Both the position numbers and the translations under genes were made by a program. A DNA stretch of 34,663 bases from a virus: UHGV virus genome UHGV-0173140. One strand, written 5' to 3'. The notes beneath the pieces are model-generated. The model was not told the DNA's origin and made no database searches. It was given only the letters and a program-made list of their open reading frames with translations. Numbering within the stretch: position 1 is the stretch's first letter; every line of letters begins with the position of its first letter. Of this stretch, positions 12,206 to 34,663 are shown piece after piece.

Positions 12206-13969
12206 TTAAAAAATGTCACCGTATTCAGGAGTACCAACAGGATTCACACCACCAGTAAATGGTTCTTCAACGAATTCGGTACGTTTTGGTGATAGTGCAA
12301 TAACCGCAGCATCGAAAAAGTTTGGCGACTTACTTCCATTTGGTTTTTTGTCGATCACAATCTTCCCGGCACCGTTACTGGTATATGTTGGCTGACTTAA
12401 CTCAGCTTCTAACCGTTGTGCATTTTCCAGTGACGGATCAATCAGAATGATTTCGTCCGGATCCTGTGGTTGACCTTCCACATACCATTTATAAATTCGC
12501 TGACATCGCAGACGTAACGCCCACGATGCCTGTGCTTTATAATTTGAAAAATAATCTTTGTTTGATTTACGGTCTTTGTCACCAGGTTTCGTACCACCGA
12601 TAATATCACCGCCCGGATCCACAACTTTTCCATTCGGTAACCACGGGCGCACACGGAAGCGTAAAGTATCTTTCCGGTCGTTTGCCGCTACTTTAACGCC
12701 TGTACCAACACCGTTAACTTCGTACCAGTATTCATCAACACCCAGCATATTAGCCATCGTCAACATCCCTGGTGCAGCCAGTTCAGCGCCCCTGTGGTCA
12801 AGCTGCAAATGTGTCAGGAATACACCGTGAGCAATTACCAGTGCGCTTGCGTCTTCACCACCGTCTGCGGCATCCTGTCCGGCGATACGTTGACCTGTTG
12901 GTGTAAGTAGTCCGTTAGCTTTACGCCATTCTGTGTCACGGAAAGCATCAAAAGCAGCGCGCACCCATTCAGCTTTAATCAGTACACCCTGAACAGCAGC
13001 GGCATAATCGCGGTCAACTTCCTGTGCGAAAATATGCTGTAAACCTTTTTCAGCGAACGATTGTTTTTCTCGTTTATACCATTCGTCGTCTTTAGCCGGG
13101 TGATCACGCCAGTCCAGAACCATGACACGCAATTTACCACGGGGTAATTTCTTACCCGGTTCCCATTCCAAACCAGCTTTACGATTACGATAAAAAACGT
13201 TACCAACACCGTTAACTGAACTGATGTCGATACGAACGTTGGTGTTAGCTGACAATGACGCTTCAATCAGTTCAGGACGATCTACGTGTGCCGCTTCATC
13301 CAAGAAATAGACAGACTTACGACCACCACGACCAATATTGTCACCAGCTTCACCAGTAATTGTTGCACCGTTTTCTGGGTTGATACATTTCATGTAAACC
13401 AGATGGTCTTTTTCACGCAGACCAACAGGACGTAATTCCGGTGGTAATGCGCGAATAATCTGGCGAATCTTTTCAAAAATACTATCAGGGTCGCCCAGCT
13501 TATCGACAAGCTGTTCTTTACGTGAACCCCAGCCAACTGAAGAACCAGGACGATACAGCCACGCCCACACGGACAAACCACAGGCTACCCAGGTCGCGCC
13601 ATAATCTCGCGATTTTTCCCAAAGCCCTTTTTCTTTGTCTTCAAGTGCTTCATAAACAAACTGAACCATGTCAATCTGACGTTCGAAAAGGCAGAAAGGC
13701 ATGTTGGGTGGATATTCAGTACCAACATTACGCGGGTCATAAGTAAACGCCCAGTCCAGAATGAACGCTACCGGGTTTGTTTCGTAATATTTTTTCAATA
13801 CCGGGACAATTGCCCGATCCGTGCGCATACGATTTAACAGGTTAATACGGTCAATGTAACACTGTTTGTAATCCGGTCGTGGCTGACCTTTTCGCCAGAT
13901 ACGTTCGTCATTTGCGTAGGCATCACGCCAGCGCGTGTAATTATGAACATTTCCAGTAAACTTATTCAT
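12206..13969 (-). CDS. terL: terminase large subunit
   Basis: Walker A-like KSRDYGAT, Walker B VYFLDEAAH and a C-terminal nuclease-like region; start set at MNKFTG (13969) because the longer track ORF (to 14194) would run through the plus-strand promoter at 14032. Confidence 0.8.
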   Translation of the reverse strand: MNKFTGNVHNYTRWRDAYANDERIWRKGQPRPDYKQCYIDRINLLNRMRTDRAIVPVLKKYYETNPVAFILDWAFTYDPRNVGTEYPPNMPFCLFERQIDMVQFVYEALEDKEKGLWEKSRDYGATWVACGLSVWAWLYRPGSSVGWGSRKEQLVDKLGDPDSIFEKIRQIIRALPPELRPVGLREKDHLVYMKCINPENGATITGEAGDNIGRGGRKSVYFLDEAAHVDRPELIEASLSANTNVRIDISSVNGVGNVFYRNRKAGLEWEPGKKLPRGKLRVMVLDWRDHPAKDDEWYKREKQSFAEKGLQHIFAQEVDRDYAAAVQGVLIKAEWVRAAFDAFRDTEWRKANGLLTPTGQRIAGQDAADGGEDASALVIAHGVFLTHLQLDHRGAELAAPGMLTMANMLGVDEYWYEVNGVGTGVKVAANDRKDTLRFRVRPWLPNGKVVDPGGDIIGGTKPGDKDRKSNKDYFSNYKAQASWALRLRCQRIYKWYVEGQPQDPDEIILIDPSLENAQRLEAELSQPTYTSNGAGKIVIDKKPNGSKSPNFFDAAVIALSPKRTEFVEEPFTGGVNPVGTPEYGDIF

Positions 13970-14031
13970 GATTATCGGTCCGTTTGTAACTATTCTGTAC
14001 AGTTTACCACGGGTGATTGGTGGTGACAGAG

Positions 14032-14074
14032 ATTTAAAATAATTCTTGATAGATTGCTCATGTATCTGTATAGT
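14032..14074 (+). promoter_or_regulatory. conserved promoter copy (TTGATA 14045-14050, -10 tatagt 14068-14073)
   Basis: gatttaaaataattcttgatagattgc; followed by a ~220-nt leader. Confidence 0.5.
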
Positions 14075-14303
14075 TGTTGTCATAGACAAGATACCTGACC
14101 AAGTATGTAGTAACCCGGAATTGTCCGGCTGAAGATACCGCTGATTGTCAGGCGCTACGGTGAGTATAAAGCGTAACTCACCCCACGAAATCACACACTA
14201 TGCATCATCTGGTTGGATGGTGGTTCCTGCGGGGATTGTGAAATTAGTTGCGACGGGTTGAAGAGATATCTTGTCACTAAACAAAAACAAGAGGGTCGTG
14301 AGT

Positions 14304-14990
14304 ATGAATATTGTTAACAGCTTGATGAAAGACTTACTTATTTCCGGTGGTTGGTCTGAAAGCTGTGTACAGATGTATCAACATGATTATGTAAAACCGA
14401 ATATTATTGAAACATACATTCAAGAAAACAAAAACAAGAGAGTCATGAGTATGAAAATCACTAAACAAGAACTGAAAAATTTTGGTGCATGTCAGGAAGG
14501 TTTTAAACGTTTCATCATTCAGACTAACAACACTGACGAACCTGTTGAAGTTATTAGTCTAATCGGTGGCAAAAATACCGTTTCAGACTTGTTATGGTTA
14601 GCCGGGAAAATCTTACCAAAAGAAAAAATCGTTCGGTTCGCTTGCGATTGTGCTTTGTTGAACATTGAATTAATTCGACCTTATACGAATGACTTTAATC
14701 TGATTCAGGATTTTCTTAATAACCCGTCACAAAATGCTGCTCGTGATGCTGCTGATGCTGCTCGTGCTGCTGCTGCTGATGCTGCTGATGCTGCTCGTGC
14801 TGCTGCTGTTGCTGCTGCGTATGCTGCTCGTGCTGCTGCTGTTGCTGCTGCTGCGTATGCTGCTCGTGCTGCTGATGCTGCGTATGCTGCTGCTGCTGCG
14901 TATGCTGCTCGTGCTGCTGCTGCTGCTCGTGCTGCTGCTGCTGCTCGTGCTGATATTAACAAACTGTTGGTGAAACTTTTCACTGAGTAA
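14304..14990 (+). CDS. hypothetical protein with C-terminal Ala-rich (AARxAAD/Y) low-complexity repeats
   Basis: ATG 14304 (track 14271, TTG); the leader aaaaacaagag(g/a)gtc(g/a)tgagtATG is duplicated in frame at 14430-14453; C-terminal ~70 residues encoded by GCT-rich repeats. Confidence 0.5.
   Translation: MNIVNSLMKDLLISGGWSESCVQMYQHDYVKPNIIETYIQENKNKRVMSMKITKQELKNFGACQEGFKRFIIQTNNTDEPVEVISLIGGKNTVSDLLWLAGKILPKEKIVRFACDCALLNIELIRPYTNDFNLIQDFLNNPSQNAARDAADAARAAAADAADAARAAAVAAAYAARAAAVAAAAYAARAADAAYAAAAAYAARAAAAARAAAAARADINKLLVKLFTE
14735..14952. repeat. imperfect trinucleotide-type repeat (gct gct cgt/gat/tat) about 220 bp
   Basis: Direct reading; produces open shadow frames on both strands (track ORFs 14705-15112 and 14734-14973). 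Confidence 0.8.
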
Positions 14991-33978: not shown

Positions 33979-34663
33979 ATGGCACAGAAAGAATCTTTTG
34001 TAACTCCGGTTGGTCGTCTGGTTGGCGGTTCTTTTTTCGATATCAACACTCATGACCACGAAAATAAACCGTTAGCACCTGAAAAACACAACTGGTGGGT
34101 TGGTCTGGCGTTTCCTAAAACAGCGGCGAACTGGTGGGAAGAACAAGGTGAACTGGGTGCGGTATTCCAGGCGATTATGCGAGCGGCTAACTCACACTAT
34201 GTGAACGGCGAACCACAACAACCTACTTTCGCATGGAAAATTATTAACGGTGATGATCCGAAACATGCGAGTAAAACTGGTTATGCTGGTCACTGGGTAA
34301 TTGGTTTCTCACGCAACGTGGCTATTGACGCGTGTCCGGTTTATAACGCAGCGTACCAGCCAGTTATTGATAAAAATCTGGCGAAAAAAGGTTATTACTA
34401 CCGTATCAGCGGATCATCTGTTGCAAACGGTCGTACAGGTAATCAGGCTGGTGTGTATATCAACATGGAAATGGCGCAACTGCTTTATGCAGGTGAAGAA
34501 ATCATTTCTGGTCCGGCTCCTGCCTCTGTGTTCGGTGCTGCTCCTGCAATGCCTGAAGGTGCACGTCTGATCGGCGTAACACCAGCGGCAGCACCTGTAG
34601 CAGCGCCTACACCAGCGGCAGCACCTGTAGCAGCGCCTACACCAGCGGCAGCACCTGTAGCAG
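33979..34663 (+). CDS. putative ssDNA-binding protein (DUF2815-like), partial; C-terminus beyond window end
   Basis: ATG 33979 with aagaagg SD; frame open to the window end; position after a DUF2800-like gene; C-terminal TPAAAPVAAP repeats. Confidence 0.4.
   Translation, partial: MAQKESFVTPVGRLVGGSFFDINTHDHENKPLAPEKHNWWVGLAFPKTAANWWEEQGELGAVFQAIMRAANSHYVNGEPQQPTFAWKIINGDDPKHASKTGYAGHWVIGFSRNVAIDACPVYNAAYQPVIDKNLAKKGYYYRISGSSVANGRTGNQAGVYINMEMAQLLYAGEEIISGPAPASVFGAAPAMPEGARLIGVTPAAAPVAAPTPAAAPVAAPTPAAAPVA
34580..34663. repeat. 30-bp tandem repeat acaccagcggcagcacctgtagcagcgcct x2.8 (coding, truncated by window end)
   Basis: Direct reading. Confidence 0.8.

Follow-up and report, generated by a model that had tools for sequence, protein, structure and literature searches.

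A doubled start region and a fast-changing alanine-rich repeat in the first early gene of a 9NA-like phage

How does a small phage gene come to carry two nearly identical translation starts at one end and a long alanine repeat at the other? This question is raised by a gene of the virus genome UHGV-0173140, a stretch of 34,663 nucleotides hereafter called the window, which belongs to a 9NA-like (Sashavirus/Nonanavirus) siphophage, its best DNA matches being Escherichia phage PDP46 and Sashavirus 536P12 (~91% identity) and, after these, 9NA, Sergei and Solent. The gene opens a rightward operon of small early genes leading to RdgC, and is divergent from the large terminase gene terL. A preliminary description had reported that its start region recurs in frame, possibly giving rise to two isoforms, and that its C-terminus is encoded by a repeat prone to slippage or recombination. 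Our comparisons lead to an explanation in which the start region was doubled by a recombination event, the repeat turns over in frame, and the product is an Imm5-like protein. We are highly confident in the account of the DNA, that is, of the repeat and the start region, and we consider the explanation as a whole, protein included, to be reasonably likely.

The recurrence of the start region was borne out. Positions 14279-14311 and 14426-14458 match at 30 of 33 nt, and the 147 nt that separate them start to start are a multiple of three, so that both copies are in frame. Their 28-nt core AAACAAAAACAAGAGGGTCGTGAGTATG occurs exactly twice in the window when up to three mismatches are allowed, whereas 100 shuffles gave an expectation of 0, and the two leader copies of the window lineage match at 26 of these 28 nt. 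Each copy ends in an in-frame ATG with a Shine-Dalgarno (SD)-like sequence 8 nt upstream, GAGGG for the ATG at 14304 and GAGAG for the ATG at 14451. We also observed a 15-nt sequence, TCACTAAACAA[A/G]AAC, just upstream of leader copy 1 (14274-14288), with a second occurrence that makes up codons 3-7 of the short form (14458-14472); 14 of 15 positions are identical. The same pair is found 36 nt apart in 536P12; it could be due to chance in A-rich sequence or represent a small operator-like element.

Relatives of the gene indicate which of the two starts came first. Sashavirus 536P12 has a single leader directly before ATG-AAA-ATC (MKITKQ...) and lacks exactly the 147-bp block, and 9NA gp10, Solent, Sergei and every Vibrio and Shewanella phage homologue begin at MKI(T/S)K. 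Furthermore, the window protein belongs to PHROG 21347 (E 8e-71, residues 50-228 aligned with profile positions 1-186 of 186), position 1 of which corresponds to residue 50 of the long form, and a profile search of 1.84 billion representatives aligned profile position 1 with the first residue of nearly all the 150 top-ranking family members. Together, these comparisons identify the second ATG (14451) as the ancestral, family-wide start, and the predicted canonical product is the 179-aa protein that begins there. Full-length orthologues annotated as hypothetical proteins (9NA gp10, Sergei gp17, Solent gp17 and PDP46_0013) occupy the same place beside terL. They differ from the window gene in that only the window, PDP46 and the metagenomic contig L015 add a 5' extension of 49 or 47 codons, and in that the alanine-rich tract of each member is different.

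The extension is rare. Among 50,697 phage records it was found in PDP46 only; searches of 5.8 billion protein clusters added the proteins P0042 and P0189 as carriers, and the metagenomic contigs L012 and L015 likewise carry it. It occurs behind three different leader variants and before three different partners, namely the full domain in the window/L012, PDP46 and L015, a chimera in P0042, where the first 42 domain residues are joined to an unrelated C-terminus, and a different gene in P0189/L013, where it precedes the C-terminal 41 residues of the gene that fills the same slot in AVIO78A. No Pfam or PHROG match to the extension was found, and AlphaFold2 modelled it with low confidence (predicted local distance difference test, pLDDT, 48-63). 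In PDP46 and L015 the two leaders share the SD core only, so only the window/L012 lineage has the long near-perfect repeat. A tandem-duplication origin was considered and rejected: in-register identity falls from 19/21 to 6-9/21 past the leader, and the extension is thus not a diverged copy of the 5' end of the gene.

Because the extension is rare, sits behind several leaders and before several partners, and because 536P12 lacks the block, the doubled start looks like a recombination scar rather than a designed two-start gene. We propose that a ~117-nt piece from the 5' end of another first-slot gene, which serves as a module at the head of further first-slot genes in related phages, would have been joined in frame upstream of the intact ancestral leader, SD and ATG. 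The A-rich leader, stop-free in that frame, would then be read through as codons ~42-49 of the longer open reading frame (ORF), and the striking 26/28-nt repeat would arise in the window lineage because the internal and upstream leaders there share one allele type. Early-region mosaicism at gene boundaries, produced by recombination at shared leader or boundary sequences, is familiar from lambdoid phages and from the promoter early stem-loop (PeSL) cassettes of T4-type phages. As in those systems, shared alleles of the leader with its ribosome-binding site flank exchangeable first-slot modules, and chimeric ORFs are abundant; here, however, the exchange would have left a module fused in frame instead of a clean gene swap.

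Beyond the extension itself, the slot for the first gene after the early leader is hyperplastic. Unrelated genes occupy it in Sashavirus BDX09P1 (L003, 2000-2365) and AVIO78A (L004, 1808-2143), and several chimeric ORFs are found there (proteins P0041, P0042 and P0189). In P0041, which is present on 9 contigs, a GG(K/E)N motif marks the junction between domain residues 1-42 and an unrelated C-terminus.

If both SD-ATG pairs were instead used by design, the gene would encode 228-aa and 179-aa proteins with distinct roles, and the duplicated leader would be under selection. SD-like sequences do stand at the correct spacing before both starts, neither of which is masked by strong mRNA structure (predicted structure near the two starts was no better than in shuffles, z -0.18 and +0.29), and the ORF is uninterrupted in all five extension genomes, one of which has an in-frame 6-nt indel and one a GTG internal start. 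Internal in-frame starts that yield two isoforms are known from T7 gene 4A/4B and lambda S107/S105, which likewise have two in-frame SD-ATG sites within one ORF; the studied gene differs from these in that its downstream start is ancestral and its upstream part a recent add-on. Programmed use of both starts is nevertheless improbable. Almost all family members lack the extension, the upstream start being present in only about five known genomes, and its homologues are a handful of near-identical copies that differ by 0-2 substitutions in 111 nt, which leaves no detectable signal of constraint and no power to show one. The extension is of low structural confidence and is also fused to an unrelated C-terminus; the A-rich leader is stop-free in frame anyway, so that an open fusion needs only a 1-in-3 chance; and the long repeat is not conserved. 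With the recombination scar as the preferred reading, the two SD-ATG pairs noted earlier are real, and the isoforms proposed from them are possible only: all genomes with the extension have kept the ancestral internal SD and ATG intact or nearly so, which makes internal initiation plausible.

At the other end of the gene, the tail of about 220 bp built of gct gct cgt/gat/tat units is as first described. Tandem Repeats Finder detected an array at 14735-14954 with a period of 33, 6.7 copies and a score of 257, together with periods of 9 and 6, and the 72 codons at 14736-14951 comprise 49 GCT, 4 GCG, 8 CGT, 5 GAT, 4 TAT and 2 GTT. The 9-nt building units are GCT-GCT-CGT, -GAT and -TAT, all interruption codons are of the form NNT, and the longest pure GCT run is five units. 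GCT accounts for 49 of the 53 alanine codons in the tract compared to 35% in the window background (P=2e-18), and for 92-100% of alanine codons in the seven Ala-rich tracts examined and again in L015; these GCT-dominated tracts include those of Vibrio phages with N-domains only ~60-70% identical.

We observed that the tract differs between phages whose flanking DNA is the same. In the independent isolates 9NA, Solent and Sergei, the N-domain DNA is identical at 276 of 276 positions and the downstream DNA is identical too, while the tracts measure 98, 79 and 45 residues, respectively; Solent and Sergei differ by a single 102-nt block and three unit-level changes. Over 6.5 kb, the metagenomic phage contig L012 (57.8 kb in length) shows 99.9% identity to the window, and it carries a clean 165-nt in-frame deletion with ends in perfect 23-nt direct repeats, leaving a tract of 20 aa vs 75 aa in the window. 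In PDP46, 536P12 and L015, where the flanks are ~95% identical, the tracts are 66, 90 and 65 residues long, respectively, and differ in unit order (the short form of PDP46 is 170 aa), and metagenomic homologues carry tracts from ~7 residues upward. The Sergei record itself flags a "direct tandem repeat region" in its orthologue. Every variant keeps the C-terminal helix in frame, and all units are multiples of 3 nt. The suspected proneness of the tract to slippage or recombination is therefore upheld both by length polymorphism behind identical flanks and by a deletion between direct repeats, and the base-for-base conservation in relatives that would speak against it was not seen. That the tract is hypervariable in length and unit order is strongly supported by these comparisons.

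The structure of the junctions points to the mechanism. Because the ends of the deletion sit in direct repeats, replication slippage or short-homology recombination would be responsible for the changes, adding and removing blocks among the many direct repeats of the tract. With a unit size that is a multiple of three, the C-terminal helix would stay in frame; continual unit turnover would homogenise codon choice, leaving almost only GCT and NNT codons, and tract length and order would change far faster than point substitutions build up. The observed codon usage likewise speaks for a process acting on the DNA. Coding simple-sequence repeats, or variable number tandem repeats (VNTRs), are well established, as is the instability of CTG.CAG triplet repeats in E. 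coli. The tract resembles them in its short direct repeats, its changes of copy number between near-identical genomes, and a deletion with ends in perfect direct repeats. In contrast, the phage tract is always in frame, so that it offers no on/off switch by frameshift of the kind seen in classical phase variation; moreover, it is interrupted and lies in an early gene of a virulent phage.

Such turnover could in principle be adaptive. The tract would then be a contingency element, with variation selected because it retunes binding or allows escape from host defence or toxin recognition. The tract turns over at an extreme pace compared with its flanks, its repeat architecture and GCT-only coding persist across distant Salmonella, E. 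coli and Vibrio phages, the gene lies in a hyperplastic first-early slot that is swapped between relatives, and the superfamily to which it belongs is predicted to act in toxin-immunity conflicts. We nonetheless regard selection for tract variation as unlikely. Neutral drift of a tolerated spacer explains the variation equally well; a family member almost devoid of a tract (P0009) and others that are non-repetitive in this region (P0040, P0026 and that of Vibrio K120) exist; and the variable residues show no consistent charge or composition from phage to phage. The latter also led us to reject a DNA mimic with an acidic helix of the Ocr/ArdA type, as the variable residues are Arg-rich here and Asp/Tyr-rich in 9NA.

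It is far less probable still that the true tract is uniform and that the length differences are collapses of sequencing or assembly. Short-read assemblers can mis-size repeats, and L012 and many of the P-numbered homologues are metagenomic. However, unit order and composition differ as well, as illustrated by the GTT and GCG-TAT units of the window, which 536P12 lacks; no two of five isolate genomes, obtained in different laboratories, have the same tract; and the internal repeats are imperfect and short, the longest perfect one (23 nt) being well below read length and below the k=119 of the L012 assembly.

Templated diversification of the kind performed by diversity-generating retroelements, or a second gene overlapping the tract (either the 135-aa antisense ORF or the Leu-rich ORF in the +1 frame), can be set aside as extremely improbable, for although several frames are open across the tract, the 34.6-kb window holds no second tract-like copy to serve as template (no search for a reverse transcriptase was made beyond it), relatives differ by block indels and not by adenine-specific substitutions, and neither ORF behaves as a gene.

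This last point concerns the reading frames of the repeat, which the preliminary description had given as open in all three forward frames and one reverse frame. The count needs correcting: the third forward frame contains 5-6 TGA stops, which arise at GCT-GAT and CGT-GAT junctions, and all three reverse frames are open. The open +1 frame, with its NTN codons, and the open reverse frames both result automatically from the string of GCT and NNT codons, and this openness does not point to extra genes. We rejected the +1 Leu-rich ORF as a gene because its frame is open for this trivial reason, and the antisense ORF because the same frame has 6-12 stops in PDP46, 536P12 and 9NA. The only non-GCT alanine codons of the tract are the four GCG codons (14814-14902), each directly before TAT; the antisense ORF is open in the window phage only, since GCG-TAT is found here whereas the GCT-TAT of relatives gives a reverse-strand TAA. 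Furthermore, the GenBank record of Vibrio phage 2.044.O._10N.261.51.B8 (L007) annotates two "CRISPR spacer" ncRNA features (1524-1597) within the Ala-repeat tract of its homologue, which are most likely repeat-finder artefacts caused by the triplet array.

The short form of the protein is predicted to consist of an N-terminal module of ~50 aa, helices of the Imm5_like/DUF6931/Imm5 type, the Ala-rich variable tract and a C-terminal helix. In the family alignment, the invariant residues of the N-domain include A13, C14, R20, F21, Q24, T25, G39, G40 and D46, C65 is conserved in at least 90% of members, and the motifs SDLLWLAG and RFACDCAL stand out; the C-terminal helix follows the consensus (I/V)NxLLxxLF. 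Synonymous codon changes outnumber non-synonymous ones in the N-domain (9:2 and 12:2), which is evidently under purifying selection. The conserved C-terminal helix and the mostly synonymous change in the N-domain indicate that selection acts on the protein. The family comprises ~170 clusters at 50% identity and occurs in unrelated Salmonella, E. coli, Vibrio and Shewanella phages with differing neighbourhoods. No relatives were found in 185,579 representative bacterial and archaeal species genomes, and the family appears to be restricted to phages.

AlphaFold2 modelled the N-domain of the window protein with pLDDT 81-95 and the tract as a helix with pLDDT ~90, and the short-tract member P0009 as a compact fold (pLDDT 90.6, predicted template modelling score 0.70). 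The non-Ala residues of the tract are spaced 3-4 apart, and the local helical moment was above that of shuffles in five of six tracts, which amounts to a modest clustering on one face. A search of the PDB by sequence profile returned only a chance match (E 0.6), a Foldseek comparison of the full-length model with the PDB gave nothing at E<2, so that no solved structure significantly resembles the models, and BFVD returned family members only.

The region from the SDLLWLAG helix onward is a remote homologue of DUF6931, Imm5_like and Imm5. The window protein aligns with DUF6931 (PF22011) over residues 41-166 and profile positions 8-130 of 145 (21.9 bits, E 2e-4). Among 137 family members, 14 match DUF6931 at E<=0.01, several of them above threshold, eight match Imm5_like and one matches Imm5. 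One member, P0099, which has the same N-terminal module, an Ala/Tyr/Asp-rich tail and an LF terminus, scores above the curated gathering thresholds of both Imm5_like (49.5 bits, threshold 25) and Imm5 (25.3 bits, threshold 25), and hhalign of the C-terminal halves alone gave a probability of 98.2% (E 3.8e-14). The likeness lies in an F-A-x-x-C-A helix followed by a helix ending in (W/F)LxNP and then by Ala-rich AAxAA helices, which are a hallmark of the superfamily and have degenerated into a simple repeat in the studied phage branch. The window protein differs in adding a phage-specific N-terminal module and a C-terminal LLxxLF helix, in that its alanine part is a triplet repeat, and in that the studied family is found in lytic phages without an adjacent toxin. 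In a distant relative of 236 aa (P0177), a DUF7666 domain (E 2.8e-10) replaces the usual N-terminal module, while the FxCxCAL-NIELIKPY helix is retained and leads into an Ala/His/Tyr-rich tail; the helical repeat half is therefore paired with more than one kind of N-terminal module.

The original definition of Imm5 (Zhang et al. 2012, PMC3482391) describes a mostly alpha-helical protein predicted to give immunity to the DYW-deaminase and CdiA-CT toxins of polymorphic toxin systems. Given the Imm5-like homology and the first place in a hyperplastic early slot, the protein may bind and neutralise another protein, as an immunity-like or counter-defence early factor, a role that we put forward as tentative and somewhat doubtful. 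The tract would in that case form a helical stalk, or a hairpin with its ends kept together, of which the length is tolerated, the N-domain and the C-terminal helix being the functional core. Several points weigh against parts of this explanation. The evidence for an immunity-like function consists of remote homology; the DUF6931 score lies below the 27-bit gathering threshold and may in part be compositional; Imm5_like (PF21805) and Imm5 (PF14423) gave no match to the window protein at E<=1; and NCBIfam and PADLOC gave no meaningful matches. A Pfam scan of ORFs from part of the neighbourhood revealed no toxin domain, and within this range the studied gene showed no association with a polymorphic-toxin or polyimmunity locus of the kind described for Imm5 proteins. 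AlphaFold2 models the window tract as one 87-residue helix, which lends no support to a hairpin. As for the DNA, L012 is a metagenome assembly, and its deletion might in principle reflect an assembly collapse; the sequences of 9NA, Solent and Sergei are isolate genomes; and the variation of the tract may be tolerated rather than adaptive.

The coordinates of the locus are collected in Table 1. Neighbours of the studied gene are terL, small hypothetical early genes and then RdgC; the terL product has a weak match to Terminase_6N. The mechanical terL ORF (662 aa, GTG start) reaches 14194, which is 75 codons beyond the annotated TerL start of relatives (13969). Because the start of the relatives' 587-aa TerL maps there, 13970-14194 is probably promoter space without coding function. 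A consensus scan located a sigma-70-like site at 14046-14074 (TTGATA-17-TATAGT, 10 of 12 positions), with a counterpart in 536P12 at the same location (TTGACA-17-TATAGT); this site could drive the rightward early operon. A terminator 3' of the studied gene was looked for and not found. The closest annotated relative, PDP46, is described as a plasmid-dependent phage of E. coli carrying a conjugative plasmid (PMC12137930).

Table 1. Features of the terL-proximal early locus in the window.
Feature	Position	Strand	Remarks
Large terminase gene terL	12206..13969	-	From ORF list; PDP46 and AVIO78A TerL annotations (587 aa) put the start at residue 76 of the ORF
Divergent intergenic region, 334 nt	13970..14303	.	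Contains the sigma-70-like site
Leader copy 1	14279..14311	+	SD-like AAGAGGG, 8-nt spacer, ATG 14304 as long-form start
N-terminal extension, 49 codons (MNIVNSLMKDLLISGGWSESCVQMYQHDYVKPNIIETYIQENKNKRVMS)	14304..14450	+	Last ~8 codons result from reading through leader copy 2
Leader copy 2, now internal	14426..14458	+	SD-like AAGAGAG and ATG 14451; by comparison with relatives, the ribosome-binding site and start that the family had ancestrally
Conserved 92-aa N-domain	14451..14726	+	MKITKxEL..AC..G..RF..QT..GG.NT.SDLLWLAG module, then first Imm5-like helices (KIVRFACDCALLNIELIRPY..FLNNP)
Antisense ORF, 135 aa	14705..15112	-	Not conserved in relatives; not considered a gene
Variable Ala-rich tract, 75 codons including SQN	14727..14951	+	Interrupted (GCT)n, CTG.CAG-type triplet repeat with NNT interruptions; predicted helical
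Leu-rich +1-frame ORF, 79 aa	14734..14973	+	By-product of NNT codons; not considered a gene
Perfect 23-nt direct repeat, left copy (TGCTGCTCGTGCTGCTGCTGCTG)	14756..14778	+	Bounds the 165-nt deletion of L012
Perfect 23-nt direct repeat, right copy (TGCTGCTCGTGCTGCTGCTGCTG)	14921..14943	+	Bounds the 165-nt deletion of L012
Conserved C-terminal amphipathic helix DINKLLVKLFTE and stop	14952..14990	+	L172, L173 and F177 nearly invariant across the family at any tract length

Other repeats were observed elsewhere in the window. A perfect 30-nt tandem repeat of 2.8 copies (ACACCAGCGGCAGCACCTGTAGCAGCGCCT, 34579-34663) is cut off by the window's end and encodes a Thr/Pro/Ala/Val-rich decapeptide repeat, making it a second candidate in-frame coding VNTR. 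Near-perfect 21-nt tandem repeats of 2.6 copies each are found at 1-55 and 20433-20487 (100% and 97% matches, respectively), the latter inside an ORF (19842-20612) without a Pfam match.

The sequence and its orthologues were already deposited as hypothetical proteins, and the case joins known kinds, namely coding VNTRs, Imm5-like helical proteins and gene-boundary mosaicism in phages. Our literature search found no paper on the function of DUF6931 or Imm5_like, on 9NA gp10 or on such repeats in phages, and no description of a phage-restricted Imm5-like offshoot, of a fast-turnover CTG.CAG-type alanine array or of a doubled start arising as a recombination scar.

These findings have practical consequences. 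The tract lends itself directly to the typing of strains of 9NA-like phages, and 9NA, Solent and Sergei, which are held in collections, are isogenic phages that differ in tract length only. The locus also serves as a warning for assembly and annotation, as "CRISPR spacers" have been annotated within the tract and ORF callers will pick the long form.

A further reading takes the tract as a fast-evolving dial of specificity or length in an Imm5-like anti-toxin or anti-defence protein, with in-frame slippage giving varied helical stalks or surfaces. We judge it quite improbable. If true, it would mean that 9NA-like phages and related Vibrio and Shewanella phages keep pace in this way with variable host toxins or abortive-infection effectors, by a programmed diversification in a virulent phage that involves neither a diversity-generating retroelement nor phase variation, with the internal start and its long and short isoforms as a second layer. 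More generally, if the variation of the tract is functional, the gene would provide a simple and tractable case of in-frame, repeat-driven diversification in a candidate counter-defence protein of a phage.

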